Positions 37 through 37,478 of a stretch of DNA of 64,000 nt are shown here, one piece after another. The translations under genes and the position numbers were made by a program. Below the pieces are notes generated by a model. The model worked only from the letters and a program-made list of their open reading frames with translations. It was not told where the DNA came from and ran no database searches. Source of the stretch: an uncultured Gammaproteobacteria bacterium (GTDB lineage: Bacteria > Patescibacteriota > Patescibacteriia > VMEV01 > CAYQCH01); the NCBI GenBank assembly GCA_964503955.1, contig CAZDCG010000002.1:13047-77046 (forward strand), in the 5' to 3' direction. The stretch's first letter is position 1, and every line of letters begins with the position of its first letter.

Positions 37-570
37 ATGAAAAAACGCTTTCTCTTCATCTTCGCGCTTGTCCTTTTTGCACCTTCCATTGCCAATGCCT
101 GTTCCTGCATCCCTCCTGAACCGCCTCTTGAAGCAAAGGAGCGCGCTGCCGCAGTTTTTGCCGGCAGAGTGGAAAGCATTGAGCAATCTGATTGGCTCAT
201 GCAAGGCGGAGCTGATCCTGTGATTGTAAGGATGACTGTTTCAGACGTATGGAAAGGACCTGAGAATCAGAACGTGACCATTCGCACGGCGCGCGACAGT
301 GCTGCCTGCGGATACTCCTTTGAAGAAGGGAAAGCATATCTGGTCTACGCGCATGAATCGGATAACGGATTGGCAACCGGTATTTGTGAACGCACGGCCT
401 TGCTGAGCGACGCTGAAGAAGATGTCAAAGAGCTTGGCGAAGCAATCGAGCCGGCCAGTTCAGAGGAGCCAATCTCAGCAAGAGGGAAGGAAGAGTATCT
501 GGCCGTTTCCATTCTCGTTCTGGTGATTGCGGGGGCATTCCTCTTTTGGGTTCGGTCAAGACGAGCATAA
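37..570 (+). CDS. Secreted or membrane-anchored TIMP-like (NTR-domain) protein. Signal peptide, mature N-terminus CSC, C-terminal TM helix.
   Basis: N-terminal signal peptide MKKRFLFIFALVLFAPSIANA followed by CSCIPP. Downstream motifs KGPE, SAACGxS and GKxYLxxxxExDNG line up with the TIMP N-domain (CSCSPV, KGPE, SAVCGVS, KKEYL). C-terminal hydrophobic stretch YLAVSILVLVIAGAFLFWV. Confidence 0.5.
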   Translation: MKKRFLFIFALVLFAPSIANACSCIPPEPPLEAKERAAAVFAGRVESIEQSDWLMQGGADPVIVRMTVSDVWKGPENQNVTIRTARDSAACGYSFEEGKAYLVYAHESDNGLATGICERTALLSDAEEDVKELGEAIEPASSEEPISARGKEEYLAVSILVLVIAGAFLFWVRSRRA

Positions 571-588
571 CTACTTTTTTGGCTGCAT

Positions 589-1047
589 ATGCAATCAAAA
601 GCCGCGACAGTCGCCGCGTATCTCAAAGCATTGCCGGCCGAGAGGCGAAAAGCCTTGCAGGAAGTGCGAAAGGTGATAAAAGCGCATTTGCCAAAAGGCT
701 ACAAAGAAGTGATGCAATACGGAATGATCAGCTATGTCGTTCCGCTTTCCGTGTATCCGGCAGGATATCTCAATGATAAAAAAACGCCGCTACCATATGC
801 GGCGCTTGCTGCTCAGAAACATCATCTGGCAGTGTATCTGATGAATATCTATGCGGACAAAGACGCGAGCAAGTGGTTTACGGAAGCGTATAGGAAATCG
901 AGGAAGAAACTTGACGCTGGCAAATCCTGCGTGCGTTTTAAAAAGCTTGAAGACCTGCCGCTGGATGTGATTGGAAAAGCCGTGGCGCGTCATACGGTTT
1001 CCGCGTGGATCAAGGTGTACGAAGCATCACGGCGCAAGCGCGCATAA
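589..1047 (+). CDS. DUF1801 (YdhG-like) domain protein
   Basis: 152 aa. The N-terminus (AATVAAYLKALP...RKALQEVRKVIKAHLP) is typical of the YdhG/DUF1801 family. Recalled from memory. Confidence 0.45.
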   Translation: MQSKAATVAAYLKALPAERRKALQEVRKVIKAHLPKGYKEVMQYGMISYVVPLSVYPAGYLNDKKTPLPYAALAAQKHHLAVYLMNIYADKDASKWFTEAYRKSRKKLDAGKSCVRFKKLEDLPLDVIGKAVARHTVSAWIKVYEASRRKRA

Positions 1048-1062
1048 TCATTATCGATTCTT

Positions 1063-1488
1063 ATGCAATTCATTGAAAACCTGCGAAGAGAAGGAGCCGT
1101 CAAGGCGGTCCGGCACTTGATCTCGGCTCCATTTATCTATGCCATCTTCCCGGCATTTGTGCTTGTGCATGCCTTCTTTGAGCTCTATCATTTCGTTTGT
1201 TTCCCGCTCTACGGAATTCCGTATGTGCAACGCAGCAGGTATTTGCGCGTAGACCGGCAAAAGCTGAGCTATCTGAATTGGGTTGAGAAACTGAATTGCG
1301 TCTACTGCGGTTATGTAAACGGCATCTTAAATTATATGGTTGAAATTGCCGCTCGCACGGAAACATACTGGTGCGCCATCAAACATCAAAAATATCCCGG
1401 CATGATCGAGCCGGCACATCATGCTGATTTCGCGGAGTACGGAGATGAAGACGGATTTGTCAAAACATTGAATGACCGTCCCGAGTAA
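1063..1488 (+). CDS. Hypothetical membrane protein with CxxC motif
   Basis: 141-aa ORF with hydrophobic helices and a CVYCGY motif. No recognised family. Confidence 0.35.
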   Translation: MQFIENLRREGAVKAVRHLISAPFIYAIFPAFVLVHAFFELYHFVCFPLYGIPYVQRSRYLRVDRQKLSYLNWVEKLNCVYCGYVNGILNYMVEIAARTETYWCAIKHQKYPGMIEPAHHADFAEYGDEDGFVKTLNDRPE

Positions 1489-2529
1489 TCATTCCTTTTT
1501 GACGTGTTCATCAAAAAATTCGAGCGTGCGGCGCATGACAAGCGGCCAGGCATCGATAAATTCATGGGGTTCGCCTTCGTAGACATGATACAGATGCTTT
1601 TTGCCGGCCGCTTGCAAGGCCGTATCAAGTTCGTCTGACCAGGCGAGCGGAACATCTTTGTCATTTGTGCCATGATGCGTCATGACTGGGGCCGTGATCT
1701 GATCAAGAAAGTTCAGGGCAGAAACATGTTTCCAGAATTCAGGCTGCTCGCTGGGGGAGCCATAGAGCGCGAGAATCTGTTCAGCAATCTCGGTTCGCTG
1801 TTTTGTCCAGCGTTCAAAGTTTTTCCAGGCATCGCCGCTCACAGGCGCAAAAAGCACCGCCGCGTCAATAAGATCAGGTTTTGCCACCAGAATATTCAAC
1901 GTGATGCCGCCTCCCATGGAGTGGCCCAGCATGCCGATCCGGTCGGTATCCATAGATGGCAATCCAGATGCTTTCGCGGCGAATATGGCGTTGACCACAT
2001 CTTTTGCATAGGCAAGACGAAGCGAAAGCTCCTGATCGGGGTCTTTGTCGGATTGCGCGTGATTTCGATAGTCGGGGTGAATGACGATATAACCGTTTCG
2101 CGCAAAATAATCCTGCTCGCGTTTGAGCCCTCGGCCATTGGTATAAACGGCCGGGTCAATGTATCCGTGATTAAGAATCAGCACGGGGAAGGGACCGTCT
2201 CCGTGTGGAACATTCATGATGCCCGAAATCGTCAATTCGCCGCTTTTATACGTGATAAAGTAGCGGGTATAATCATTTGTGCGCGCAAGGACATCGCCGA
2301 CAGTGAAATCCCGGCCGTCAAATATTTCTTTGCTCAAGGCTTTTAAGGAAACCGGATGCGGCGATGCGGCATGAGCGTTTGCGTTTTCAGGCAGACTGTC
2401 GGTTTCACGCAATGCCGCAGGCTTTGCATCTGTTGAAAGTTCCGGCGCGGACTGTTTTTGTTGCGGCCAAAGAATCACCATGGCGCATAGGCCGGCGAAG
2501 AGGGTCAGTACCAATAGTCGTTGAGACAT
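1489..2529 (-). CDS. Secreted alpha/beta-hydrolase (S9 peptidase/esterase-like serine hydrolase)
   Basis: N-terminal signal peptide. GHSMGG nucleophile elbow (GxSxG). Alpha/beta fold pattern with C-terminal HxxxD. Confidence 0.7.
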   Translation of the reverse strand: MSQRLLVLTLFAGLCAMVILWPQQKQSAPELSTDAKPAALRETDSLPENANAHAASPHPVSLKALSKEIFDGRDFTVGDVLARTNDYTRYFITYKSGELTISGIMNVPHGDGPFPVLILNHGYIDPAVYTNGRGLKREQDYFARNGYIVIHPDYRNHAQSDKDPDQELSLRLAYAKDVVNAIFAAKASGLPSMDTDRIGMLGHSMGGGITLNILVAKPDLIDAAVLFAPVSGDAWKNFERWTKQRTEIAEQILALYGSPSEQPEFWKHVSALNFLDQITAPVMTHHGTNDKDVPLAWSDELDTALQAAGKKHLYHVYEGEPHEFIDAWPLVMRRTLEFFDEHVKKE

Positions 2530-4027: not shown

Positions 4028-4339
4028 TCCTCTGTTGATCGTGCTCAACAAGCGGGAGCGGCAGACCATGGTGAACAATAATTCAAGGCTTGTTTGAAGA
4101 GAAGGCATGTCAGCAGGAAATAACGGATTTTCTCTTGAAAATGGAGTATTTTGATGGTAGAGTACTCTATCAGGCGGCTTCGTAGCGCCCCCAGCTTTCC
4201 TTGCGCCAAAGTGTTTTCATGGCCGGTTGTTCTGCTTAGCTGCCAGTTTTGCTTGAATGTGCCGGCGAAACCTTTTATACTGCAGTATTGCCAGAAGCGT
4301 CATAAGTCGATGGCCGCACTTAACGCTTTTTTTGTCTCT

Positions 4340-5269
4340 ATGAATACGCTCACTGTCAGGAGGATAAGCAAAGAATATCACGGCGTGAAAGCCGTTGATT
4401 CCGTTGATTTTTCGATCCATAAAGGTCAAATCGTGGGGCTGCTCGGTCCAAATGGAGCAGGAAAGACCACAACCATGAGTATTATTTCAGGCATTTTGGC
4501 GCCTGAGTCAGGATCCGTGCTTTTTGACGACCAGGAGCTTGGTCCTGAAACGGAAATTGCGATTAAAAAACAAATCGGATTCCTTTCAGAAAGCAATCCG
4601 CTGTATCAGGACATGCTCGTGCGCGAGTATCTTGATTACGTTGCCGGGCTGCGGGGAATGAACAAAGAAGAACGAAAACGCGCGATTGACGAGGTCGTGC
4701 AAGAAACCGGCTTGCAGGATCGTCTCTATCAGCCAATTGAAGAACTTTCAAAAGGTTATAAGCAGCGCGTGGGGCTTGCCCAGGCGATTTTGCATAAACC
4801 TGATTTGCTGATTCTTGATGAACCGACCGAAGGACTCGATCCAAATCAGCGTGTCAGCATCAGAGATCTCATCGCAAAGCTCGGCAAAGAACGCACCGTA
4901 TTGATCAGCACGCATGTGCTTTCCGAAGTGCAAGCGATGTGCGATTCCGTCATCATCCTCAATGAAGGTAAAGTGATCGCGCAAGGCAGCGTTGACGAAA
5001 TTTTAAGGCAGAGCAAACAGGGGCAGCTCATTTCGCTTGAAGTACAAGGCAATGCAGTCAAAGACGCTTTGGAAAAAGCCGGGCTGCAAATCGTGGATCA
5101 TGAACAGAGAGAGGGAAGAGAAGTCTTCACCTTGCGCTCAACAAGCGCGGAGGATATGCGCCCAAAGGTATTTGCTATCGCCAAGGAGCAGTCCTGGATT
5201 TTGTATGAGCTGCATCAGAAAGCTCTCAACCTTGAAGAAACCTTCCGACAACTGACCAGCAAAGCGTAA
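4340..5269 (+). CDS. ABC transporter ATP-binding protein (ABC-2/GldA-like)
   Basis: Walker A GPNGAGKTT, signature LSKGYKQRVGLA, Walker B LILDEPT. The ORF track starts at 4151, but that N-terminal extension has no ABC homology, so the start is taken as the ATG at 4340 (MNTLTVRR). Confidence 0.85.
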   Translation: MNTLTVRRISKEYHGVKAVDSVDFSIHKGQIVGLLGPNGAGKTTTMSIISGILAPESGSVLFDDQELGPETEIAIKKQIGFLSESNPLYQDMLVREYLDYVAGLRGMNKEERKRAIDEVVQETGLQDRLYQPIEELSKGYKQRVGLAQAILHKPDLLILDEPTEGLDPNQRVSIRDLIAKLGKERTVLISTHVLSEVQAMCDSVIILNEGKVIAQGSVDEILRQSKQGQLISLEVQGNAVKDALEKAGLQIVDHEQREGREVFTLRSTSAEDMRPKVFAIAKEQSWILYELHQKALNLEETFRQLTSKA

Positions 5270-5273
5270 ACGT

Positions 5274-7493
5274 ATGAAATTCAACCCATTTTTGGCCGTC
5301 TTCAAAAAGGAAGTCAAAGCATATCTTGATCAGCCAATGGCCTATATACTTGCTGTTGTTTTCTTGGCGATCAATGCCTTCTTCTATTTCCGCACCAGTT
5401 TTCTTGAGGAGGTCGCAAGCCTGCGCTCCATGTTCCAGCTTTTGCCGTGGATCTTCCTTTTCTTTATTCCGGCTTTAACCATGCGGACCTGGGCTGAGGA
5501 GCGCCGCGAGAATACGCTTGGCATGCTTTTAAGTTATCCGGTTCATGTCTGGCAGATCATACTTGGCAAATATGCGGCCACGGTTTCCTATGTCGCGGTT
5601 ATTCTCGCCTTGACATGGATTATCCCGATCAGCCTTTCGGGGGCGGGGAATTTTGATTCCGGCACGATTATTGCTCAGTATCTTGGAGCTTTTCTGCTTA
5701 TGGCGGCTATGATCGCTGTTGGACAATGGGCATCCACGCTGACCAAAAACCAGGTGGTCGCTTTTATCATCAGCGTGGCTGTTTTGTTTGCTTTCGTTTT
5801 GGCGGGGCTTGACTTTGTGGTCCTGGCTTTGCCATATCCAATCAATTTGGTTTTTCAGCAGCTCGGTATCTTTTCGCACTTTCAGTCCATGACGCGCGGG
5901 CTGATCGACGCGCGCGATGTGCTCTACTTTGTGTCGCTTGCGGCCATCTTCCTGGCTTTGTCCTATCTGTGGCTGAATAAGGTGAAGCGTTCGGTAAAAA
6001 CCAAGGAGTGGAAAACCCTTCAGGCAACCATCGCCACCTTTGTCGCGATCGCCGTTGTGATCAATCTTTTTGGGCAAAGCCTTACCGTCCGCGCGGATAT
6101 CACGGAGCAGAAAGTGTACAGTCTCTCGCCGGCCACAAAATCTGTTTTGCGCAATCTGGAGGATACCATCCGATTGACGTTGTACCGGTCAAAAAAGCTG
6201 CCAACCCAGATCGAATTGCTCAGCCGCGATCTGCAGGACATTCTGGCTGATTATGACAAATTCGGCGGAAACAATGTTGATTTTTCCATCAAATACCCTG
6301 ATCAGGATCCGCAGATCGCGCAGGAAGCAAAACAGAAAGGCATTCCAGCCGTTCGCTTCAATGTGGTCCGCGAAGATGAATTCACCTTGCAGGAAGGATA
6401 TCTCGGCCTGGTGATCGAATACCTTGACGACCGCGAAGTACTGCCGTTCATCCAGCAAATCGGAGATCTTGAATACCAGCTCACAAGAGCCATGCTTGCT
6501 TTGCAAAGAGAACGGCTGCCGGTTCTTGGATATGTTTCTGATTTCGGCGGGAAAACCCTTGAAGAATTGTCTGCATTCGCGCCTGTTTTGCGCAAGGAAT
6601 TTACCGTGCAGCAGATTTCTCTTTCATCTGAAGAAGGGAGCAGTGAACCGGTTCAAATCGATGAGAGCATTGACGCGCTTTTCATTGCCGCTCCTACGCA
6701 AACGTATTCAGACGCCGCCGTTCAGGCCGTCCGCGACTATGTCAGCCGGGGAGGAAAGATTTTCTGGCTGGTTTCAGGGGTGAAAATCGATCAGGGCTCG
6801 TTAACGGTCAGCGCCAATACAACCGGCCTTGAGCCGATTCTTGCTGAGCACGGGATTACGCTTGAAAAAAATCTGGTCGCCGATCTGGCTTCTCATGAAA
6901 CCGTGAATTTCAGCGCGGGGTTATTTAATTACTTCCTTCCATATCCGCTTTGGGTCAAGGCGCGCGTCGGCCGTCATGTGATTGCTGGCAATACCTCGTC
7001 TATCACAATGGCCTGGCCAAGCTCCATCCAGCTGAGCAATGAGCAGGCGATTCCGCTTGTGACAACCTCCCCGTCATCGGTGGTGCAAACCGGTTCGTAT
7101 ATCGCGCATCCAGATCAGCTTGGCTCATTGCCAAAAGATAATTTCGCGTCCTATACGCTTGCCGCCGTCCTTCCGGATATTCCTGCGGATGAAGGAAATG
7201 AACCTGGCCGTTGGGTGGTTTTTGCAAGCAACCAGCTGCTTGAAAACACCATGCTGCAGCAAAACTCGCAGAATGCGGCGCTGGCGCTCAATGCACTTGA
7301 CTGGCTCTCGCAGAATGAAGCGCTTCTCTCTATTCGAACCAAAAACGCGGGCGCTCCGGTACTTGTCTGGTCATCAGCAGAGAAAAAGAATCTGGTGAAA
7401 TGGGGCAATATTGCCGGTGTTCCGCTGCTGGTCGCGGTTGCCGGAGCCGTGCATCTCATCCGCCGAAAACGTCTGTCTCAAAAACACGCTTAA
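5274..7493 (+). CDS. ABC-2 family permease fused to a GldG-like extracytoplasmic domain
   Basis: N-terminal region of about 250 aa with six hydrophobic helices. A large soluble domain is followed by a C-terminal TM. Its start is 4 nt after the ATPase stop. Confidence 0.65.
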   Translation: MKFNPFLAVFKKEVKAYLDQPMAYILAVVFLAINAFFYFRTSFLEEVASLRSMFQLLPWIFLFFIPALTMRTWAEERRENTLGMLLSYPVHVWQIILGKYAATVSYVAVILALTWIIPISLSGAGNFDSGTIIAQYLGAFLLMAAMIAVGQWASTLTKNQVVAFIISVAVLFAFVLAGLDFVVLALPYPINLVFQQLGIFSHFQSMTRGLIDARDVLYFVSLAAIFLALSYLWLNKVKRSVKTKEWKTLQATIATFVAIAVVINLFGQSLTVRADITEQKVYSLSPATKSVLRNLEDTIRLTLYRSKKLPTQIELLSRDLQDILADYDKFGGNNVDFSIKYPDQDPQIAQEAKQKGIPAVRFNVVREDEFTLQEGYLGLVIEYLDDREVLPFIQQIGDLEYQLTRAMLALQRERLPVLGYVSDFGGKTLEELSAFAPVLRKEFTVQQISLSSEEGSSEPVQIDESIDALFIAAPTQTYSDAAVQAVRDYVSRGGKIFWLVSGVKIDQGSLTVSANTTGLEPILAEHGITLEKNLVADLASHETVNFSAGLFNYFLPYPLWVKARVGRHVIAGNTSSITMAWPSSIQLSNEQAIPLVTTSPSSVVQTGSYIAHPDQLGSLPKDNFASYTLAAVLPDIPADEGNEPGRWVVFASNQLLENTMLQQNSQNAALALNALDWLSQNEALLSIRTKNAGAPVLVWSSAEKKNLVKWGNIAGVPLLVAVAGAVHLIRRKRLSQKHA

Positions 7494-7503
7494 TCTGAAC
7501 CGT

Positions 7504-8436
7504 ATGAAAAAACTCGCCATCTTGTTGTTGATTTTTGTCTTGCTTCTCGCCGGTTATTTCCTCGTCAGAAAACTATTAACGCCAGACGTGTTTCGCGCTC
7601 CGGAGGGATTTCGAACCGCAGAATGGAAGGAAGAAATGATCGATGAGATTTCCATTCAACAAGAGGGAGTTGAGGAATTGATCCTCCATAAGGAAGATGG
7701 AGCCTGGTCTGTTCAAGCGTACCCGGCGGATGCACAACGCGTCCGTGAGCTGTTTAACGCTTTGCAGAATAGCTTGATCACTTCGCGCGTTTCCTCTAAC
7801 AGTCTGAATCATGAACGGTTTGAAGTTGATGAAAAGAATGGGAAAACGGTCCGCTTCTCCCGCGAAGGAAATGAATTCCAGCGCATGATTGTCGGAAAAT
7901 CCGCCGGGGGAAATAGCGTCTATGTCCGCCTTGAAGGTGAAGAGAATGTGTTTGTGCTGAGCGGGCTTGCAAGCTACCTGGCCACCGCCGAGCAGGATTT
8001 TTGGCGGGATCGCCAGGTCTTTTCAATGGAGCATGATGATATCAGACTTGTTCGCTTCCAGACGGCAGCTGAAACATGGGAGATAAAAAAACAGAACGAA
8101 GGATGGGCGATCGCAAGAAATGCGCAAGCGCCTATGTCCTTGTCTGATGAGCGCGTCAGCAATTGGATGAATGGTTTGCTTGCTATGCAGGCGGGATCTT
8201 TTCCCGAAGAGGGGGATGCGATTTCTGGTGCGGCCAAAACACTGACCATTGAAACCGGAACTCCTGAAGAATTCAGCGCGTCATTTACCTACAAACTTGG
8301 TGCGCCTGAAAACGGATTTGTACTTGTCGCTCCTGAGCAGGGGTATCCGGTGCTTGTACAGGAATCGACCATCGACACAACGCTTCAATCGTATCAGAAG
8401 CTTTTAGAGACGTTGGCAGACCAGCCTTCCGCATAA
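7504..8436 (+). CDS. DUF4340-like membrane-anchored protein (GldG-associated)
   Basis: MKKLAILLLIFVLLLAGYF anchor. Its position directly after the GldG-like gene is the typical arrangement. The start was moved from 7411 to the ATG at 7504. Confidence 0.45.
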   Translation: MKKLAILLLIFVLLLAGYFLVRKLLTPDVFRAPEGFRTAEWKEEMIDEISIQQEGVEELILHKEDGAWSVQAYPADAQRVRELFNALQNSLITSRVSSNSLNHERFEVDEKNGKTVRFSREGNEFQRMIVGKSAGGNSVYVRLEGEENVFVLSGLASYLATAEQDFWRDRQVFSMEHDDIRLVRFQTAAETWEIKKQNEGWAIARNAQAPMSLSDERVSNWMNGLLAMQAGSFPEEGDAISGAAKTLTIETGTPEEFSASFTYKLGAPENGFVLVAPEQGYPVLVQESTIDTTLQSYQKLLETLADQPSA

Positions 8437-11623: not shown

Positions 11624-11661
11624 GGTGCGAATCCTCGAGTCGATGACAAGTTACAAAGAAA

Positions 11662-11690
11662 AACCGCCGGCGTTTCCGGCGGTTTTTCTG
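11662..11690. terminator. Bidirectional rho-independent terminator between rpoD (+) and the giant coiled-coil gene (-)
   Basis: ccgccgg-cgttt-ccggcgg hairpin flanked by aaaa on the 5' side and ttttt on the 3' side. Confidence 0.7.
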
Positions 11691-11700
11691 TATATAGCAC

Positions 11701-14700
11701 TTATACCAATAGGGAAGAAATTTGTTGGATTTCAGCAAGCAATTCTTTTGGTATATCAGCATTGTTGATTCTACCTTTCTTTCCAGCAGCGAGGCGTCTG
11801 ATCTGAAGCAGTAATGAACCTTTTTCTTTATCACCAAGAGATAGGGCATTAGGGATCTTGGGTGAGATGGCTTCAATCAGCGTTTTTTGAGCTCGAATCG
11901 CCCTTTTATCGATTTCTTTTGGTAATTTTTTCAATAGACTTTCCCATGCCTGATTCAACTCCAGCTGCAGCTCTTCAGGAGTTGGCTCGCGCAAGGATTC
12001 AATATATGTTTGCAGCTCCGTGAGTTTATCCCGTTTCTCAGCAGGAGTCTCTAACTGATCAAACTCATCCTGAAAGCCGTTAAGTGCTGCGTTGATATAT
12101 TCGCCATTTTCTTTTCTGGAGGCGGCGGTATTTCTTCCTTGTTCTACCAATTGCTGCCACTGCTTCTGTACGTCTTTTTCAGCATTTGCTTCAGTCTCTC
12201 TTCCGCTTTGTTCGATTTCACGTTCCCGGCTTACTAACGATTCTTTTAGTGTTTGCAGTTCAGTTGCCGAAAGTGTAGGTATCGGCTCTCGCTTTCCCTC
12301 CCCGTATCCAGGAGAAGATGGTCCTATCTCAAGTCCAAGCAATTGCCGGATGTGATAGACAGTGCCGCTGCGGCTTCTGTTAAATTGATCAAAATCTTTT
12401 TTATTAAGTCGCTCAATATCTTTTGCTATTGCCTTGAACGAATCTGATTGTTCCTTTGTTTTATCTGGCTTAGATGCGGAAGCCGGCGTTTCAATGAGGG
12501 ATTGGACTTTATTGATGAATACAACCATGTCCTGTTCAGCCTCTTGTCGTGCTTTTTTCTTTTCCTCCTCTGTAGCAGCCTTATTCAGCGCGTAAGCTAG
12601 TTCACGATTCAGAGCAGCATATCCGTGCATAATAGATCGAACCTGATCTTTTGAGAGTTTGGAGTCTGCTTCCTGCATTAGAGACCATGCCCTTAATCTG
12701 GTTTTTTCAGAAACCCCTGTCACATCGCTTGCTTTTTCCAATTTTTTTACGGTAACGGAAATAGGAGGCTTGCCTTCAGGTCGATCTCCTTTGGGAGATT
12801 CTTTTTTCGTTTTTTCTCTGATACCCCATTCATCAGCAATTTTGTCTATTTCTCGGTAGAATTCTGCGGGATCTTTCTTTTCGGATTTCAGAGCGTCATT
12901 CACCGTCTTTACGGCAGCATTAAGAAAATCGCGCTTCAATGCTTCCGTAACCGTTGGGGAGGAGAGCAGATTGTAGGCAGCTTCGTCTAATGCATGTTCC
13001 CTCCTTGAACGCTCTTTAGGGAGAATATTGTGTTGAACAAGCAATTTTGCCAGAGGGTTGATTGTCCTTCTTATTTCCTCATTCTCGGCAAGGCGCTGTT
13101 CCGTTTCTTGTAGAAGCGCTTCAATTTTTGCGATATGAGCCAGCAATTCACCCCGATTTTTGATAGCTTCGTAAGCCTTCTCGCCAGCGCTTATTCCAAT
13201 GAGCTGAATTCGATTCTTAACGGCTTCTTGATCAGGCTTTTTATCGCCATTTGAAAGAGATTTCTTCAAATCCTGATATTCTCCCCAAAGCCGTTCCTGG
13301 TCTTCCTTCCACTCTGGTGTCTCTGGTTTTGACGATGCCGGCTCATGTGCCGCATCCGGCGCTTCTCCTGAAACTTCCCCTGTGCCGGTCGATGAAGTGT
13401 CTGCTTCAGATCCGCTGGAACCTGTTTCTTTCGGCAAATCGGAAACAAGGGATTCAATGAGAGTCAGGTTGTAGTTCAAGTCGTTCAATAGCTTGGATTT
13501 CAGCATTCTGGTGCGTTCAATGAGTTTTGCATTGCTGAATTTGAGCAGATCTTTCTCAATGTTTTCTCGAATCTTTGTCACTGTTTCTGGGAGGGGATCA
13601 GGGGTATCAACTAAAATGCTATCTAATCGACTGGTGATTTCATCCTTGAGCGTCTCGGGGTTTTTGGCGTAGCGCTGAATCTCGTCTGGTAGGGATTCAG
13701 AAGCCTTGCTTCTCAGAAGTCCAATATTCAAATCGAGATCCTTTAACAATTGCCCCTGAAGCAAGCGGGAGCGTTCTTTTGAAGAAGCCTTGCTAAATTG
13801 ATCGATGATTTCTCTGGTTTTATTGAGAAGAGGTTTGATATCCTCTGGCAAATCCGCATCATCCATAGATTCGCCAAAACGGGCCTTGAGAATGCCTGAA
13901 AGTTTCTTTGAATATTCTTGCTGGAGAAGCACAGGTTCCTGCTCATATTTCCTATACACCTTGTAATGCTCAAGCGCGGATCGAATTTCAGCGAATTTTT
14001 CCTCGAGCAAAGAAAGATAGGTTGTTTTAAGAAGATTTTCATAAGACCCTTCTTTTGGCTTTTGAGCGTATTCAAGCCCCGCGTCCAATTGGGCGATCAG
14101 CTGCTGGATATGTTCTGGGAGATTCTTTTGCTCTGTATCAGTTCCAAGAACTTCGCGAATGGACTTCTGAAGAAATTCCTGAGCAACTTGTTTGAGTTGG
14201 TCTGGATTCTTTGTTGACTCCGCGCTATGTTCAAATCTGCCTGCGGTGCCTAGTTGGTCCATCAATTCTTCGATCTTGTCGAAAGCTTTGTACCGCTTCA
14301 CAACCGTGTCAGAAAGCACAAATTCTTTCATGTACCGGTTCACTTGTGCCACCAGTTCTTTCAAACGAGGCGGCTGGTTGTTAAGGTCATTGCCAAGCGC
14401 CTTATTCATTCTTTCGCTGATATGTTTCCTGTACAGGTCGGGATCTTCGAGGTAATCGATTCCGGCTTCATGCTCAATTTTGTCATCGCTTGTTGAAGAG
14501 ATGTGACCCTCATAAAGAGCGGCAATCTTTTTTCTCACGCCGCTTCTTCGCAATACATCCGTTACAGGCAAACCAGCAAGTTCTTGATAGAGTTCCATTA
14601 CCCGGTCAAGATCATAGCGGGCTCGTTCAAGATTATTTTCGTTCCCTTTGCTCGCCGCGTTTTCAACAATAGCTATCAATTCGGAGAAATGTTTCTTGTC

Positions 14701-15939
14701 GCGGGCTTCAGGTAATTGATCTTTAAGCTGGTACGCCTTTGCAAGAGCATTCACCGCCAAAGTCCACGATGATTCCTTGTACTGAGCCTGGCTAAGCTGC
14801 AAATGCCTCCTTCTTGTGTCCACAGCGGACAGAGCCTGCTTCAGCCCTTCGATCATCTTTTTGTAGGATGCCTTTTCATTGAAAGAAGACGAAGCCGCTA
14901 ATCCCTGCTCTTGTGCCGACTTCTCGTCTTGCTCAAGCAAAGCCAGCCGATTCTGATAATCGCTGAGCTTATCCTGAAGAAATGCTTCCTGCCTATCCAG
15001 AGCATTTGAAATGGTCCGCTGTTCCTGCTGGATCTGTTCTGCTTTATCCTTCACCAGCATTACTTCATCTTTCCTCAGCTCCGCAATCTTCTTGTTTGCC
15101 TGGTCAATCTCATCGTTATGCCGTTCATAGCTGGCCACGCCAGGAGCATCTTCAAGTGCGTCAGAGTTATTCTTCAAAAATCGATTTGCGTCTCTGGTTT
15201 TTCGAGTAACCTCCGCATTAACCTGGCGCAGCAGCTCGTTTGGGGCCAGATCCTGATTGCTTGAAAGATATTTTTTTAAATAAGCAGCCCGCTCTTTTTC
15301 AGGAACGACATCAAGCCCCTGAATCACTTTAAGAAAGGTATCCGCTTTTTTATCCACCCCTGCAATGACACGCTTTTGCTCTGCCGGGTTAACACTTGTG
15401 TCTATAATTTTCTCTTGCTTCTTTTGCTCGGCTTCCTGTTGCATGTACCGGTTGATCACTTGTCCGACAACAGGATAGTCTTTGAGTTTCTGCACCCATT
15501 TGGGCAGGCTGGATTTGGCAAGAATCTCCGGCTGAATCGGTTCAGCCGGAAGTTTGAGCATGCGCTCGTAGTTTTGCAGGACTTCGTTGCGGGCTTCTTC
15601 AAGCCTCGATAAAGCCCCCTTCATGGTGTCGATTGCTTTGAGCAGCGATTCAGGCGCTAGCGAAAGCTCTGAAAGCGCCTCATCGACCTCCGACTCTAGC
15701 CTTTCCATGCTCTTTTTCAATCTGTCGCGGTTGAGATCGACGAGATTGCGGACACTTTCCTGATCGGCACGAGATTTATAATCCTCTCTGAAGTATTGTG
15801 TATACCGGATAATATTGCTTGTCAGGTCGCGGATCTTGCGGCGTTGTGCTTCGATTTGAGCCGCATAGCGCTCCTCCTCCGGATTTGCCCGGCGCTCACT
15901 GGTTTCAGGTAATTCAAAAAGTTCCTTTGGAGTAGGCAT
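11701..15939 (-). CDS. Giant 1412-aa coiled-coil protein, cytoplasmic (no signal peptide or TM)
   Basis: Single uninterrupted 4.2-kb ORF. Composition is extremely E/K/L/Q/R-rich with heptad-like periodicity throughout. A Ser/Gly/Thr-rich linker lies mid-protein (GSSGSEADTSSTGTGEVSGEAPD). No Walker motifs were seen. Confidence 0.7.
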   Translation of the reverse strand: MPTPKELFELPETSERRANPEEERYAAQIEAQRRKIRDLTSNIIRYTQYFREDYKSRADQESVRNLVDLNRDRLKKSMERLESEVDEALSELSLAPESLLKAIDTMKGALSRLEEARNEVLQNYERMLKLPAEPIQPEILAKSSLPKWVQKLKDYPVVGQVINRYMQQEAEQKKQEKIIDTSVNPAEQKRVIAGVDKKADTFLKVIQGLDVVPEKERAAYLKKYLSSNQDLAPNELLRQVNAEVTRKTRDANRFLKNNSDALEDAPGVASYERHNDEIDQANKKIAELRKDEVMLVKDKAEQIQQEQRTISNALDRQEAFLQDKLSDYQNRLALLEQDEKSAQEQGLAASSSFNEKASYKKMIEGLKQALSAVDTRRRHLQLSQAQYKESSWTLAVNALAKAYQLKDQLPEARDKKHFSELIAIVENAASKGNENNLERARYDLDRVMELYQELAGLPVTDVLRRSGVRKKIAALYEGHISSTSDDKIEHEAGIDYLEDPDLYRKHISERMNKALGNDLNNQPPRLKELVAQVNRYMKEFVLSDTVVKRYKAFDKIEELMDQLGTAGRFEHSAESTKNPDQLKQVAQEFLQKSIREVLGTDTEQKNLPEHIQQLIAQLDAGLEYAQKPKEGSYENLLKTTYLSLLEEKFAEIRSALEHYKVYRKYEQEPVLLQQEYSKKLSGILKARFGESMDDADLPEDIKPLLNKTREIIDQFSKASSKERSRLLQGQLLKDLDLNIGLLRSKASESLPDEIQRYAKNPETLKDEITSRLDSILVDTPDPLPETVTKIRENIEKDLLKFSNAKLIERTRMLKSKLLNDLNYNLTLIESLVSDLPKETGSSGSEADTSSTGTGEVSGEAPDAAHEPASSKPETPEWKEDQERLWGEYQDLKKSLSNGDKKPDQEAVKNRIQLIGISAGEKAYEAIKNRGELLAHIAKIEALLQETEQRLAENEEIRRTINPLAKLLVQHNILPKERSRREHALDEAAYNLLSSPTVTEALKRDFLNAAVKTVNDALKSEKKDPAEFYREIDKIADEWGIREKTKKESPKGDRPEGKPPISVTVKKLEKASDVTGVSEKTRLRAWSLMQEADSKLSKDQVRSIMHGYAALNRELAYALNKAATEEEKKKARQEAEQDMVVFINKVQSLIETPASASKPDKTKEQSDSFKAIAKDIERLNKKDFDQFNRSRSGTVYHIRQLLGLEIGPSSPGYGEGKREPIPTLSATELQTLKESLVSREREIEQSGRETEANAEKDVQKQWQQLVEQGRNTAASRKENGEYINAALNGFQDEFDQLETPAEKRDKLTELQTYIESLREPTPEELQLELNQAWESLLKKLPKEIDKRAIRAQKTLIEAISPKIPNALSLGDKEKGSLLLQIRRLAAGKKGRINNADIPKELLAEIQQISSLLV

Positions 15940-15940
15940 A

Positions 15941-16118
15941 TTATTCTGTCATGGAATCAAGAGTCGAACGCGCCTGGGTGAGTTTGTCGGAATCCTCAAG
16001 CACGGAGCCAAGTTCATGCATAGCACGCTGCAAATCATGCAACTCGCTAAGTTGTTCTTCAAACTCGGTTACGAGTTTTGAAAGCTCATTTTTTAGGTCG
16101 TCAGTTTGGCTATCCATA
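15941..16118 (-). CDS. Small 58-aa acidic coiled-coil protein, translationally coupled upstream of the giant coiled-coil gene
   Basis: Read by eye, because it is below the ORF-track length cutoff. MDSQTDDLKNELSKLVTEFEEQLSELHDLQRAMHELGSVLEDSDKLTQARSTLDSMTE. Its stop TAA is at 15943..15941, one nucleotide before the ATG of the 1412-aa gene. Confidence 0.4.
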
Positions 16119-16175
16119 GAGAAAAATTCACAAAAATCTTTCTTCTATCATATCAGAAAGGAAACCCCTCACAAA

Positions 16176-16847
16176 ATGAATAACCGTGCAAAATATGCTA
16201 CGATGCGAAAGCTTATGAATAAGTTATTTTGGTTTGCTTCCATTCTTGCGGCCGCGGTCATGGCCTTCGCTGTTCTCGTCGGACTGCGGATCTATCGTTT
16301 CCCGCTTGTTCCGCAATACAAACACGCGGATTTTGCGATCTTCATCAATGGCCAGCGGCTTGACTACTCTACAGACCGCTACACAGACCCTGATTACTGT
16401 GAAGAAGGGATCTTCGTGGTGTCGGATGAAGAGACAAAGCCGGGAGATTATCTCCGTGAAGGAGGACAGGTTATTCATGTGCATAAGGGAACAGCCACCT
16501 ACGCAGATTTTTTCGATTCGATAGGAATTGAGTTTGACGGAGAGATATTCAAAGATGACCGAGGAAATGAATATACTCAGACCGAGACGCACGCCTTCCG
16601 TGTTTTTTTGAACAAGCAGGAAGTTAAGGCGGTTCATGAGCGGGAAATCAAGGATCTTGATCATCTTCTGATCAGTTATGGCAAGCGAGATCGAGAAGAA
16701 AGCGAACTCGCGTACGAGCTGGCCCAGCTTCCTGATTTAGCCTGCTTTTACTCGGTCGTTTGCCCTTATGAAGCTCCTTCCGTGAAAGATCTTTGCGTGC
16801 CGGATAACTATTATCGAACCATTCTTTACTACTGGTTTGGGATTTAA
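16176..16847 (+). CDS. Membrane-anchored hypothetical protein
   Basis: ATG at 16176 is preceded by aaaggaaa. N-terminal TM FWFASILAAAVMAFAVLVGL. The upstream part of track ORF 15951.. overlaps the minus-strand small gene and is rejected. Confidence 0.5.
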   Translation: MNNRAKYATMRKLMNKLFWFASILAAAVMAFAVLVGLRIYRFPLVPQYKHADFAIFINGQRLDYSTDRYTDPDYCEEGIFVVSDEETKPGDYLREGGQVIHVHKGTATYADFFDSIGIEFDGEIFKDDRGNEYTQTETHAFRVFLNKQEVKAVHEREIKDLDHLLISYGKRDREESELAYELAQLPDLACFYSVVCPYEAPSVKDLCVPDNYYRTILYYWFGI

Positions 16848-30863: not shown

Positions 30864-32477
30864 ATGCGAAGTTTGAAGCCCCATTTGCGCGGCTTTGCCG
30901 GGTACCTGATACTCGCGATTGTTGTGCTCATTGGCGCAAACGCTGTCTTTAACACCCCTGCCTTGGCGCAGGTAGATGTTGGATTGGAGCAGGCTGAGCA
31001 GATTGGACTTACAGGAACCGATCCTCGACTCATTGTCGCTCGCATTATTCAAGTAGCCCTCGGCGTGCTGGGTATCACCGCCGTGGGGCTTCTTATTTAT
31101 GCGGGCTTTTTGTGGATGACATCCGGCGGGGAAGACGAAAAAGTCGGCCGAGCAAAGACGCTTTTGCGAAATGCGTTGATCGGCTTGATCCTGATTCTGT
31201 CCGCATTTGCCATCGTGACCTATGTCTTCAGCATTTTGCGCCCTGATCTGTATTCAACGCCTCCGATCGGTTCGCGGGGAGGGATTGGCGGTATCGGAGG
31301 CGGCGGAGGTTTCCCGATCGGTGTCATCTCCTCGCATTACCCGGATCGAGGACAAACCAATGTCGCGCGCAATACCAATATCATGGTGACATTCACCGAG
31401 CCGATACTTGTTGAAAGCATTATCGATAATGCCGGAACACCAGATAATCCCGCTGATGATCGTTTAAATACGGAAAACATTTTTATCCGACGTTCGGCCG
31501 ATGATCCAAATGATGGACCTTTCGTGCCGGCCGCAGCGGCTGCGTCTGAAGACGGACGTTCCTTTGTCTTTGACCCGATTGATCTTCTTGGTTCGTCTGA
31601 AGAAAACACCCTTTATACCGTCGTGCTTGGGGAAGGAATCACGACCGCGCAGGGAAGAGGCGCATTTGGAAATTTCGGTGCCTATGCATGGGAATTTGAA
31701 GTGGGAACCTTTATCGATCTTGAGCCGCCGCAGGTGGAAAGCGTGATTCCGGCGCAGAGTTCAACGCATCCTCGCAATGTCGTGGTGCAAATCAACTTTA
31801 ATGAAGCAATGAATCCGCTTACGGCCAGCGGAGAAGTAGGGGCTGGTTTTGATGCGATCTCGATCCGCCAAGCGGACGGCAGCGTCGTGGAAGGCCGATA
31901 CATGATCAGCAATCAGTATCGGACCGTCGAATTTATCACCAATGATTTGTGCGGGAAGAATTCCTGCGGCGAAGACGTGTTTTGTTTGCCCGGAGATGCC
32001 GCACTGACAGCTCTCCTGCGTGCGGCGACAATCAGTTTGTCACCCCCTACGGCGGCTTTTCCATATGACGGATTAACGGATGCGGCGGCAAATTCGCTCG
32101 ACGGAAATCTTGACGGTTCCGCGCAAGGTCCGCAAACGGATAATTATACCTGGTCGTTTCAAACAACCAATCAAATCGATTTGACCGCGCCGGTTATTGT
32201 CTCGGTATCGCCAAATCCATTTTCTACCCAGGTCGATCTGAATGCTCCGGTTACGGCAACTTTCAGCAAACCGCTTCAATTCAGCACCATCAACCGTAAA
32301 TCGGTGAGCGTGGACGGCCTGGAAGATTACCGGTTGAATGCCAGTTCGCAAGGCGGGCAATCTCGTATCGACATTCTGCATCGAGGGCTTTTGGAAGAGA
32401 CAACCTATACGCCGGTTGTGACATCAGATGTTCGCGATCTTTATCAGAATTGTTATCGCCCTTGTGTCGGTCCTTAA
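30864..32477 (+). CDS. Surface protein with an N-terminal T4SS-pilin-like two-helix domain and SbsA-type Ig-like repeats
   Basis: Signal peptide, then IIQVALGVLGITAVGLLIYAGFLWMTSGGEDEKVGRAKTLLRNALIGLILILSAFAIVTYVF (the hydrophobic-SGG-KAK-hydrophobic pattern of CPR VirB2/TrbC-like pilin domains). Gly-rich linker GGIGGIGGGGG. At least three repeats of the PPxVxSVxPxxxxxxVxxxxxIxxxFxExM type. Confidence 0.6.
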   Translation: MRSLKPHLRGFAGYLILAIVVLIGANAVFNTPALAQVDVGLEQAEQIGLTGTDPRLIVARIIQVALGVLGITAVGLLIYAGFLWMTSGGEDEKVGRAKTLLRNALIGLILILSAFAIVTYVFSILRPDLYSTPPIGSRGGIGGIGGGGGFPIGVISSHYPDRGQTNVARNTNIMVTFTEPILVESIIDNAGTPDNPADDRLNTENIFIRRSADDPNDGPFVPAAAAASEDGRSFVFDPIDLLGSSEENTLYTVVLGEGITTAQGRGAFGNFGAYAWEFEVGTFIDLEPPQVESVIPAQSSTHPRNVVVQINFNEAMNPLTASGEVGAGFDAISIRQADGSVVEGRYMISNQYRTVEFITNDLCGKNSCGEDVFCLPGDAALTALLRAATISLSPPTAAFPYDGLTDAAANSLDGNLDGSAQGPQTDNYTWSFQTTNQIDLTAPVIVSVSPNPFSTQVDLNAPVTATFSKPLQFSTINRKSVSVDGLEDYRLNASSQGGQSRIDILHRGLLEETTYTPVVTSDVRDLYQNCYRPCVGP

Positions 32478-32480
32478 CCT

Positions 32481-35400
32481 ATGAAGCGGATTTTGCTGAC
32501 CATTTTCATCGCGCTTTCCTTCTTTCTTCCTGCTTCCTCCGTTCTGGCGCAGGAAGCGGGGGCGGATTCTCCTGTTGAAACCGTCGTCCAGGAAACATCA
32601 TCGGTAAGCACCGGCTGGAGAGTTGCGCAGATTATCGCGCTGGCCGGGGCCGTCATCAGCCTTGGCATGCTGATTTACGGGGCGGTGTTGTGGCGCAATG
32701 CCGTGCAGAATAATGATTTGCTCATGGCCGACCGCGGCCGTAATCTAACCGTCTTGTTCGGTATCGTTTTTTTCCTGTTCCTTGTTCTATTGCTTATCAG
32801 CTTTGTGGTAATTGCGCGCCAGCAGTCGCGCCAGACGGAGCAACAGCAGCAAATACAAACAACCGGTACCGGCGGATTGAGCGTTCGGGACTCACTCTTG
32901 CTTGTTGAGGCGATTCCAAATTCCGCGGTTCCTATCCGCAATGTTGCTGTTCAGCTGCTGTTCAACCAACCCGTCAGTCAGATCAATGTAGAACAGCATA
33001 TTTTGGTATCAGCGCAAGAAGGAGAAGGACCGGTGGTCGGAACCTGGACCGTGGAAGGGGAATATGCCGTCTTTCAGCCGAATCAAGCCTGTCCCGCGCC
33101 CAATCAGAATCTGCGCTGTTTTGATGCCAACCAAACCTTTGTTGTGACTATTGCACAGGAATTGACGAGCGAAGACGGGGATGCGTTCCGTTGCTCGCTT
33201 GCCGCATCTTCCGAGCAATGCCGGTTTACCTTCACGACGGGAGAAGCGGTTGATTCCACCCCTCCGACGGCGCGCATCTCCTTGCCGCTCAATGATGCCG
33301 CGGTGGCTCAGGATTCCGCGCAGCAGGTAGAAGCGCTGGCAAGCGACGATCTGGCGGTGGCTTCCTTGCACTTCTTCGCGGATGGAGAACGAATCGGCGT
33401 ATCAGCCGCGCCGGGCAATGAGTTGCAAACTTCTTTTCGGGCATCCGCCATTTGGTTGACGGAAGGGCTCGCCATTGGATCGATGCATACGATCCGGGCG
33501 GTTGCGTATGATTTCGCCGGCAGAACGGGCGAAGCAGTGCCCGTGCAGGTGGAAATTCTTCCCGCTTACTGTTTTGACGGCCAGCAGAATGAAGACGAAG
33601 AAGGGCTTGATTGCGGAGGGCCGACCTGCCGCGCCTGCCAGGGAGCGGTCTGCAGCAGCAATGAGGATTGCGCATCAGGACTTTGCTTTAACGGTGTCTG
33701 TCAGGAATTCCCGGTGATTGAAGAAGTGATTTATCCAAACGGCGCTCCGGGAAACCTTGTGACGATTCGCGGGAAGAATTTCGGATCCGAGCCTGGATCC
33801 GTGATTTTCCTTGGAGGAGCCAGTGATGCGGATAATGTACCGGGGCAGCTTCCGCCATGCGAAGCATATTGGACGAATCAGGAAGTCATTATCGAGGTTC
33901 CAGCAGGAGCTGTCAGCGGGCCGCTTCGGCTTGAAACGGCACAGGCGCTCTACGATACCACCGACGACAGCAAAGGAGAGCGCGTTGTATTTGAAGTAAA
34001 CGATCTTGTCCGTCCAACGCTCTGCGCTGTTTTGCCGCCTTCGCAACAGGTGGGGCGATCTGTTCAGATTATCGGCAAAGCGCTTGGCGAGGAACCTGGC
34101 AAGGTCTTCTTCGGACAGAATGCCGCCAGCCGCGTTCAGGGCTGGGCCGATGACATCATTTCAGAAGTTTTTCTACCATCCATGCAGGCAGGTCCGGTTT
34201 CGGTCAGCGTGGAAGCGGCTGGAGAACGAAGCAATCCTGTGCACTTCCTTGTGCAGGAATCCGATACATTGCCGTTCATTGAATCGATCACGCCTGACCG
34301 CGGACCTGTCGGACAAATGTTCAGTCTGCGCGGGCGGCATTTCACCGCATCCGCGCTGGTTCGTTTTCTTGATCCGCGGACTGGGGAAACCATCCTTGCT
34401 GATACGCGATTGCCCCGGGAATGCGAGCAATATATTTCCAATCAGCAGCGCGCGTATCGCGTGCCAAATCTCGAACCGGGAACATATCAGGTTTATCTCG
34501 AAACGGAAATCGGCCAAAGCAATAGCGTTGATTTTGTGGTCACCCGCGGAGAACGCCTGCCAGGCCTTTGCGGCATGACACCGGACAATGGCCCGCTTGG
34601 CATTGAGGTCACGCTGCACGGAGAAGGGTTTGGAAGCCAAGCCGGCGCCGTGCGGTTCACTCCGCGCATTGATGACACGCAAATTCTTTCCTGGCGCGAT
34701 AACCGCGTGCAGGCGGTTGTGCCTGCGACAGCACAGTCAGGTCCTGTACAGGTTGTGAACGCGGCGGGCGCTTTAAGCAATGCTTTGGATTTCACCATTG
34801 GAACCTGCAGCCCGGATACATGCTCTGAAGGTCTTGTTTGTTGCGGCTCAGGCTCATGCCAGGCAGCCGGCAGCTGTGCGCAGAATATTCCATACTGTTC
34901 GTATCAATGGGTCTTTAGCACAGGTGATGATCTTGGCGGGCCTCCACGGGTGATTGAAGACGCTTCCTGCAGAAGCAATACGCAAAGCCCTTCTCCGTAT
35001 AAAGACACAAAAGACGCATGTTTGAACGCGCAAATCTCGGCGCGGTTTACCCACGACATGCTCGACAACTCGCTTTCAACCGACAATATCGTTGTACATC
35101 GCTGCAATACCGGCGACTTGCTTGATTCATCTCAATGCCAGGTCGAGGTCAATCTTGCGAGTCTCACCATCATCAATGCGGGACAACCAGGCGAGGGATT
35201 CATTGCCGCGCCGCAGGTCGCTCTTGAACCGGATACCTGGTACGAAGTTGTGCTCAGCACCGGGTTTACGGCTGAAAACGGGCTATCCATGGCATCACCG
35301 TATCGTTGGGTCTTTAAAACGCAGGTGGGAGACGGCCAATGCCAGGTCGATCATATCGAAGTTACACCAGCGTCCGCCACGCTCAGGCAGCTGCTTGATC

Positions 35401-37427: not shown

Positions 37428-37478
37428 TATTTCGTGATGCATGGAACTTTGGTATCATAGAAAGATGAAATCATTCTT

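Follow-up and report, generated by a model that had tools for sequence, protein, structure and literature searches.

A predicted two-gene operon for a 161-kDa helical protein and a 58-residue helical protein in a narrow lineage of Patescibacteria

The described bacterial proteins nearest in architecture to the one considered here are of two kinds: helical-repeat scaffolds of the spectrin-like type (EzrA, for example) and the coiled-coil-rich proteins, a loosely defined class. EzrA is built from tandem helical-bundle modules instead of a rod; crescentin, FilP, and Scy (the last about 1300 residues long, similar in size to the protein described here) have long uninterrupted rods of heptad or 51-residue repeats. 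Mycoplasma HMW2 and its partners offer another case, in which a giant helical protein with acidic and proline-rich segments and small partner proteins occurs in a very small bacterium that lives attached to its host and has a reduced genome. The subject of this report is a pair of adjacent open reading frames (ORFs), encoding proteins of 1412 and 58 residues, in a 64,000-nucleotide stretch of contig CAZDCG010000002.1 (positions 13,047 to 77,046 of the forward strand; assembly GCA_964503955.1), hereafter the window. Its source belongs to the Patescibacteria or candidate phyla radiation (CPR), whose members are ultra-small and mostly uncultured and lack many canonical cell-organizing proteins; roughly half of their genes lack a functional assignment, and their genomes commonly encode conserved orphan proteins. 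Our analysis indicates, from comparison of related sequences, that the pair is a conserved bicistronic operon that is so far confined to a narrow Patescibacteria lineage, and structural modeling suggests that the large protein is all-helical and modular and not one long coiled coil.

Like EzrA, the large protein appears to be all-alpha, acidic, cytoplasmic, and free of enzymatic motifs, with bundle modules in tandem; its N-terminal helices of ~33–37 residues and its four repeats of ~88 residues would suit a chain of bundles. Unlike EzrA, it has no N-terminal transmembrane anchor and no match to the EzrA models of Pfam or NCBIfam, and it is 2.5 times longer. The ~88-residue repeat is modeled with six short helices, in contrast to the ~106-residue triple helix of EzrA, and Foldseek gives the comparison no support. 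The small ORF falls far below the cutoffs of the EzrA models (13.2 bits versus 39.6; 15 versus 562).

With crescentin, FilP, and Scy the large protein shares its size, charged and cysteine-poor helical composition, fast evolution, restriction to one lineage, and freedom from enzymatic domains. In contrast to their rods, only ~20% of it is heptad-like, and no sequence similarity to crescentin, FilP, Scy, or the Filament families was detected; by a crude heptad score and by the modeled helices, the near-continuous rod of intermediate-filament-like, FilP, and Scy proteins is absent. The resemblance to the Mycoplasma terminal organelle extends only to lifestyle and composition: the phylum is different, no homology to any described family was detected, and no EAGR or acidic, proline-rich domain architecture is evident in the large protein.

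The SMC, Rad50, and MukB proteins are likewise helical, longer than 1000 residues, and possessed of a central hinge. The large protein differs from them and from RecN in having no Walker A/B motifs, ABC head, SMC_N or AAA match, or long antiparallel arms, and its own "hinge" is modeled as a disordered linker, not a folded dimerization domain. Coiled-coil segments of Rad50 and SMC gave only sub-threshold matches to the small ORF (E 0.006–0.017, far below cutoffs).

The elements of the locus are as follows.

11701–15939, minus strand: large ORF, 1412 residues
15941–16117, minus strand: small ORF, 58 residues, directly upstream of the large ORF
15937–15943, minus strand: stop-start junction TAA-T-ATG, candidate termination-reinitiation site, as suggested by its sequence
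16147–16174, minus strand: candidate operon promoter, from a consensus scan and conservation in the related contig L083
11657–11689, both strands: predicted bidirectional intrinsic terminator, from sequence and folding energy
16176–16847 as called, plus strand: divergent gene for a membrane-anchored protein of ~210–223 residues

Conservation and expression signals of the pair

A search with the divergent 223-residue membrane protein encoded beside the pair led to a 7-kb Logan contig (L083) from a related species, in which the counterpart of that neighbor is ~69–70% identical. Gene order is the same in the two species: the large ORF, the small ORF 1 nt upstream of it, and then, on the other strand, genes for the membrane protein and exonuclease III (xth) and the ATP synthase (atp) operon. 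The large ORF of L083 (3–2462, minus strand) runs off the contig edge after 820 residues, and the two large proteins are 37% identical over 831 residues (E = 1e-157). This match, together with the presence of a 1412-codon ORF in DNA of ~50% GC, identifies the large ORF as a real gene and not a chance reading frame.

Synonymous change between the two species has reached saturation (proportion of synonymous differences, pS, 0.78–0.80), so dN/dS is not computable and the proportion of nonsynonymous differences (pN) was compared with pS instead. Between the window and L083, pN is 0.10 for xth, 0.20 for the membrane protein, 0.27 for the small ORF, and 0.45 for the large ORF, the last against a pS of 0.80. 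For a genome of such size a protein of 161 kDa is costly, and purifying selection on it and on its dedicated small partner implies that it has a specific task.

The small protein (6.6 kDa, pI 4.3, net charge −10) has a continuous 3–4 spacing of hydrophobic residues and is a single amphipathic helix or a helical hairpin, which agrees with an earlier note, made from the window's sequence, that had called it acidic and helical. Its L083 ortholog has 59 residues and is 53% identical and 81% similar (E = 5e-20). Differences occupy 27.8 of 35.5 synonymous sites and 37.2 of 138.5 nonsynonymous sites (Fisher p = 3.7e-8), and of the six frames only this one stays open in the two species; both observations point to a genuine coding gene under purifying selection, and we regard the small ORF, on this comparative evidence, as encoding a real conserved protein. 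Four contigs make up the sequence cluster of the small ORF; two of the loci, L001 and L002, were examined and match the window letter for letter. The possibility that a segment of the large protein was duplicated and detached to give the small ORF was rejected (best E = 0.21). An antisense ORF of 298 residues that overlaps the small ORF (15951–16847, plus strand) is an artifact, with three stops in that frame in L083.

Upstream of the small ORF lies a sigma-70-like promoter candidate, with a −35 element TTGTGA (16174–16169), a 16-nt spacer, and a TG-extended −10 element TATGAT (16152–16147). In a consensus scan it matched at 9 of 12 positions, with TG preceding the −10 element, and the motif is unique within the window. 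Two blocks, TTCATTTTGTGAGGG (which holds the −35 TTGTGA) and TGATATGATA (which holds the TG-extended −10 TATGAT), are identical in L083 over 15 of 15 and 10 of 10 positions, and the spacer and leader between and after them have diverged. Two conserved blocks amid diverged sequence constitute a phylogenetic footprint of a promoter, and we infer that they drive the operon. The leader that follows is ~23 nt long, AU-rich, and without a Shine-Dalgarno (SD) motif.

At the junction the minus strand reads GAA TAA T ATG CCT, with a 1-nt spacer between two ORFs in different frames. A 15-nt string at the junction, GAATAATATGCCTAC, is identical in the window and L083, and the junction itself is identical across three independent assemblies. 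The stop thus lies within a few nucleotides of the next start, in an arrangement conserved in L083, and the two ORFs are presumably translationally coupled. The earlier note had suggested such coupling from the ORF pair and its 1-nt junction, both of which are present as described, and the recurrence of the small ORF and junction in a related genome, which it had named as a check, was found.

Almost none of the ~40 genes in the window has an SD motif within 25 nt of its start, and the organism seems to begin translation largely without SD pairing. The sole purine-rich candidates precede rpoD (agagggaag) and the 223-residue membrane-protein gene (aaaggaaac). Given the near-absence of SD motifs, the presence or absence of a ribosome-binding site is uninformative for the small ORF, and reinitiation would be a sensible route for loading ribosomes onto the second ORF.

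Between the stop codons of rpoD (11623) and the large ORF (11701) lies the sequence AAAAACCGCCGG-CGTTT-CCGGCGGTTTTT, a hairpin flanked by an A-run and a T-run, in which a U-tract follows in both directions. It folds with −25.4 kcal/mol on the plus strand and −26.1 on the minus strand (z = −6.3 and −6.8), and 200 shuffled sequences yielded no fold as stable. Although the hairpin at 11657–11689 was not among the hits of the consensus terminator scan, its fold is unambiguous. The hairpin is predicted to be a terminator common to the convergent rpoD and large-ORF transcripts, and the fold on both strands upholds the bidirectional terminator that the earlier note had placed on the rpoD side.

Architecture of the large protein

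The large protein has a mass of 160.8 kDa, a pI of 5.8, a net charge of −17, and a grand average of hydropathy (GRAVY) of −0.82. It is rich in Leu (11.7%), Glu (11.4%), Lys (9.8%), and Ala (8.6%), as expected from the earlier description of a charged, E/K/L-rich chain. The same description held that signal peptide, transmembrane helix, and nucleotide-binding motif are lacking, and hydropathy and motif searches agree: no export signal was found, no transmembrane segment (maximum 19-residue Kyte-Doolittle score 0.77), and, by regular expression, no Walker A/B ([AG]x4GK[ST], hhhhD[ED]), HExxH, LPxTG, or CxxC motif.

The chain contains 57 prolines and 51 glycines, and its prolines are spaced ~25 residues apart on average; no stretch without proline exceeds 143 residues (267–409), and segments free of both proline and glycine have a median length of 8.5. 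Among the 30 prolines in the first 820 residues, 16 are invariant between the orthologs at 37% overall identity, so the helix breaks are part of a conserved design. Heptad-like spacing was scored with a crude in-house measure (proline-free 28-residue windows with at least 75% core residues at positions a and d; not Marcoil or DeepCoil), by which 285 of 1412 residues are covered, compared with 0–239 in ten shuffles. The heptad-like, proline-free stretches are residues 21–130, 308–390, 525–569, 632–668, and 805–835.

A single-sequence AlphaFold2 model of residues 1–1200 has low overall confidence but well-defined secondary structure. In it ~75% of the chain is helical, in 42 helices with a median length near 20 residues and most between 15 and 25. 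Helices of at least 32 residues number eight and total 341 of the 1200 residues.

Helices of at least 32 residues (model): 20–56, 60–92, 97–128, 266–345, 350–387, 634–666, 919–969, and 1161–1197

By these measures only ~20–28% of the protein looks coiled-coil-like. The proline count, the helix lengths, and the bundles formed by its repeats all argue for a modular protein rather than a continuous coiled coil, and the earlier picture of a giant coiled coil with heptad-like spacing throughout does not hold. Nor is there support for an analogy with intermediate-filament-like, FilP/Scy, and SMC rods, given the invariant prolines and repeats that model as small bundles. The segments that can be distinguished are listed below.

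15445–15717, minus strand: residues ~75–165, highest conservation (50–63% identity to L083 in 30-residue sliding windows)
14779–15144, minus strand: residues 266–387, long helical hairpin in the model, with the longest helices (80 and 38 residues)
13420–14418, minus strand: residues 508–840, four tandem helical repeats of ~88 residues (R1 508–590, R2 591–680, R3 681–768, R4 769–840)
13300–13434, minus strand: residues ~836–880, acidic linker rich in S/G/T/P, from composition (no secondary structure at 834–876 in the model)

The N-terminal part carries helices of ~33–37 residues (residues 20–128). The most conserved segment includes the proline-rich sequence LPAEPIQPEILAKSSLPKWVQKLKDYPVVGQVINRY, and the columns invariant in L083 include P131, P134, P137, P146, P156, W148, V157, V158, and G159; the segment is a candidate interaction site. 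Residues 266–387 probably form an antiparallel coiled-coil hairpin, as modeled, and residues ~310–380 have the highest confidence in the full-length model (predicted local distance difference test, pLDDT, 67–83).

The four repeats follow a common pattern, L-G-x-D...LPE-x-I...LL...L-x-x-L. A BLOSUM diagonal scan scored 68 at an offset of 86, against a shuffle maximum of 36–47, and a hidden Markov model built from the units detected only these four copies in the large protein. R3, modeled with an alignment of the four units, gave a compact structure (pLDDT 73.7) of six short helices, the longest 17 residues, and Foldseek found no fold match for this model in the PDB. The repeats are also present in L083, as seen in secondary BLAST alignments shifted by one unit.

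Beyond the repeats, residues ~836–880 are predicted to be a disordered linker; their composition and lack of structure in the model bear out the mid-protein S/G/T-rich hinge proposed earlier. The C-terminal half contains further helices interrupted by short linkers.

Possible roles of the pair

The reading that we tentatively prefer, while placing its odds below even, is that the large protein is an elongated, modular, cytoplasmic helical-bundle scaffold that is co-produced with a small helical subunit. The physical binding of the two products, the cytoplasmic location, and the scaffold role are all inferred; a continuous coiled-coil filament is not expected, and a scaffold is plausible. Under this reading the conserved sigma-70-type promoter would drive transcription of the short AU-rich leader, ribosomes would translate the 58-residue acidic amphipathic helix and stop at TAA, and they would then restart at the ATG 1 nt further on to make the 161-kDa protein from the same mRNA, which would tie the production of the two proteins together. 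Transcription would end at the bidirectional hairpin common with rpoD. The large protein would consist of bundles joined by flexible linkers, a "beads-on-a-string" scaffold or organizer, with the small protein putatively bound to it as a subunit in fixed stoichiometry or as a partner in its assembly.

A narrower proposal is that the pair forms a Patescibacteria-specific cytoskeletal or attachment-organelle scaffold, with the small protein as a capping or nucleating subunit, which organizes the cell pole or the host-contact site of an ultra-small episymbiont. Such a structure would be functionally analogous to the HMW2 core and unrelated to described cytoskeletal families; we consider it a long shot.

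Several observations weigh against a cytoplasmic scaffold produced by coupled translation. Close gene spacing is common in the window, so a 1-nt junction is not special by itself. Conservation is drawn from two species, and the ortholog covers only residues 1–820 of the large protein; the AlphaFold2 model covers only residues 1–1200 and is of low confidence (pLDDT 45.7). The large protein diverges fast (dN 0.69, versus 0.11 for xth), and it has no cysteine, where ~16 would be expected from the 38 other genes in the window (Poisson P ~ 1e-7). Fast divergence and absence of cysteine fit an exported or host-facing protein equally well.

A protein of that kind is the second reading, unlikely in our estimate and still to be taken seriously: the large protein would be exported or host-directed by a non-Sec route (type IV secretion or pilus-related), with the small protein as its chaperone or targeting partner, and would act on or at the host of the presumed episymbiont. 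Its nonsynonymous rate is ~6 times that of xth and ~3 times that of the membrane neighbor, the lifestyle of CPR bacteria is episymbiotic, and a gene with a T4SS-pilin domain and giant Big_5/TIG surface proteins lie in the same window (30864–40124). The small acidic helical protein upstream recalls chaperone-effector and targeting-factor/toxin pairs in general; as in chaperone-effector and type VII secretion system Lap/LXG pairs, its gene directly precedes, in a tight operon, that of a large protein whose N terminus is helical. Unlike those pairs, this one has no WXG100, LXG, chaperone, or toxin domain and no secretion-system genes in its neighborhood (rpoD, the membrane protein, xth, and the atp operon), and no recognizable secretion domain was found in the large protein, which, as noted, shows neither signal peptide nor transmembrane helix. 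The YscX model matched with E = 0.043 and 14.6 bits, against a cutoff of 25. Helical and coiled-coil structural proteins, moreover, are likewise cysteine-poor and fast-evolving.

Atypical codon usage might also be taken to favor an exported protein. The GC content at third codon positions (GC3) of the large ORF is 0.437, versus 0.526 expected from its amino-acid composition (z = −6.9; −2.5 to +5.2 for the 38 other genes), and is the lowest among the window genes. AGA and AGG make up 36% of its Arg codons, versus 15% elsewhere, and CAA 46% of its Gln codons, versus 30%. However, the L083 ortholog has the same bias (GC3 0.40, versus 0.45–0.52 for most of its neighbors), so low GC3 characterizes the gene itself and gives no support to recent horizontal transfer; low expression or relaxed codon selection are possibilities.

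It is improbable, in our view, that the large protein is truly rich in coiled coil and assembles with itself into cytoskeletal filaments in the manner of intermediate-filament-like proteins, crescentin, FilP, or Scy, which would be the strict form of the reading in the earlier note. Heptad-like proline-free stretches are present (21–130, 308–390, and others), the modeled helices at 266–345, 350–387, and 919–969 are long, and heptad-like coverage exceeds that of all ten shuffles. Yet the share of residues in coiled-coil-length segments is small, the protein contains many prolines, about half of them conserved where the orthologs can be compared, neither a central rod domain nor a Filament-family match was found, and the repeats model as compact bundles and not rods.

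Quite improbable, too, is a hydrophilic helical protectant or storage-type protein (late embryogenesis abundant, hydrophilin, or apolipoprotein-like) that coats membranes or macromolecules under stress and has no defined scaffold architecture. The strongly negative GRAVY, the even spread of charged or Gln residues (~40% of the total), the low model confidence over most of the chain, and a weak, non-significant fold resemblance to apolipoprotein helical bundles are consistent with such a protein, whereas the conservation of helix breaks, motifs, and hydrophobic positions of the repeats is not; a partner gene that is small, dedicated, and conserved suggests a specific complex, and typical members of this class are generally far smaller than 161 kDa.

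We give almost no credence to a nonfunctional, decaying, or mis-called pair (a recent selfish insert, or one gene split by a frameshift), which conservation effectively excludes on the sequences compared: codon usage is atypical, 80 other genomes have no counterpart within 10 kb of rpoD, and the ORFs are in adjacent frames and would be joined by a +1 shift at the stop codon, but both ORFs are intact with the same junction despite saturated synonymous sites, pN is far below pS, the three assemblies agree at the junction, GAA-TAA is not generally known as a slippery site, and searches of phage, plasmid, PHROG, and PADLOC collections found no match. Programmed +1 frameshifting to fuse the ORFs is likewise unlikely, since there is no slippery site and the length and stop of the small ORF are conserved. 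A phage tape-measure protein or mobile-element cargo was rejected for want of phage context or phage/plasmid similarity, and no PADLOC model of an anti-phage defense protein was matched.

As an internal scaffold or host-contact organizer, the large protein would represent a structural system that is new and arose independently; as an exported effector, it would be relevant to the way in which these episymbionts interact with their hosts. At present the pair stands as a well-documented conserved orphan operon and not as the discovery of a mechanism.

Searches for relatives and neighboring genes

Pfam, NCBIfam, PADLOC, and PHROGs returned nothing at or near curated cutoffs for the large protein, the small ORF, or the membrane neighbor. 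The best PADLOC match was DpdH (E = 0.52), and the best PHROGs values were E = 0.27 for the large protein and 0.075 for the small ORF. No match was found by tblastn against 50,697 phage and 72,556 plasmid records, in a scan of IMG/VR contigs, or in two JGI metagenome scans (one with the single protein, the other with the two-ortholog alignment).

A single-sequence search of PDB sequences with the large protein gave no matches, and a two-ortholog profile retrieved only de novo designed helical proteins (E ~ 0.009). Neither structural model had a significant Foldseek match in the PDB; the weak ones were de novo designed helical repeats, apolipoprotein-type bundles, and the helical arm of seryl-tRNA synthetase, the last a non-significant match with a root-mean-square deviation of 0.9–1.2 over 71 columns for which the matched query residues were not reported. 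These resemblances appear to indicate generic idealized helical packing and not homology. The literature on coiled-coil or giant proteins of CPR bacteria yielded nothing relevant. The absence of a known family, as the earlier note had judged from sequence, is thus confirmed by the family databases, PDB sequences, and Foldseek, and the family appears to be new at the sequence level and known so far from two related Patescibacteria.

In a word index of 5.8 billion proteins the large protein matched only itself, and direct searches of proteins and contigs retrieved nothing from outside the same strain. A search of proteins with the four-repeat profile found nothing, not even the query protein, and an exhaustive phmmer search with residues 1–1200 against 1.84 billion representatives gave no matches; the query itself was also missed, so that negative is weaker than it appears. 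The 820-residue ortholog fragment of L083 is absent from the protein collection, and direct searches are therefore blind to it; orphan status is partly an artifact of fragmentary assemblies. Giant genes in such assemblies are lost at contig ends and missing from protein collections, and a short conserved neighbor provides a way to the ortholog.

The rpoD gene product is 62–72% identical to those of metagenome-assembled genomes (MAGs) labeled Falkowbacteria, Uhrbacteria, Kerfeldbacteria, Magasanikbacteria, or "Patescibacteria group", which places the source among the Patescibacteria. In 27 of 28 loci checked (L003–L030) dnaG adjoins rpoD. Across 80 rpoD loci no homolog of the large, small, or membrane protein was found within 10 kb of rpoD, and the nearest 40 (L003–L042) contain no comparable giant helical ORF. 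An Uhrbacteria MAG (L007) encodes, ~8 kb upstream of rpoD, a cysteine-free ORF of 701 residues (56–2161, plus strand) with 30% E/K/R/D/Q and 13% Leu; it has no similarity to the large protein by tblastn and could be an analogous helical protein.

In the window the pair is flanked by dnaG and rpoD on one side and by the 223-residue membrane protein, xth, and the atp operon on the other. It is opposite in strand to the genes on both sides, in agreement with the antisense orientation described earlier. No tRNA or tmRNA genes (ARAGORN) and no Rfam families at gathering threshold were found in the 64 kb. The true start of the membrane-protein gene is probably M10 (16203) or M14 (16215) and not 16176, because the upstream ATG at 16176 is out of frame in L083; this ATG falls within the conserved −35 block. 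The gene is retained beside the pair in L083, and any functional link between them is putative.

Directly upstream of dnaG-rpoD, 4151–8436 (plus strand) encodes an ABC ATPase, then a 739-residue fused ABC-2 permease/ABC_transp_aux/DUF7088 protein, and then a DUF4340 protein; together they are an auxiliary ABC transport system of the GldG-like type. A cluster at 30864–40124 (plus strand) encodes probable surface proteins of great length, with 537 residues (T4SS_pilin and Big_5), 1648 residues (Big_5, TIG, and Big_7), and 881 residues (thrombospondin type 3 repeat); this cluster is a candidate host-contact apparatus of the source CPR bacterium.

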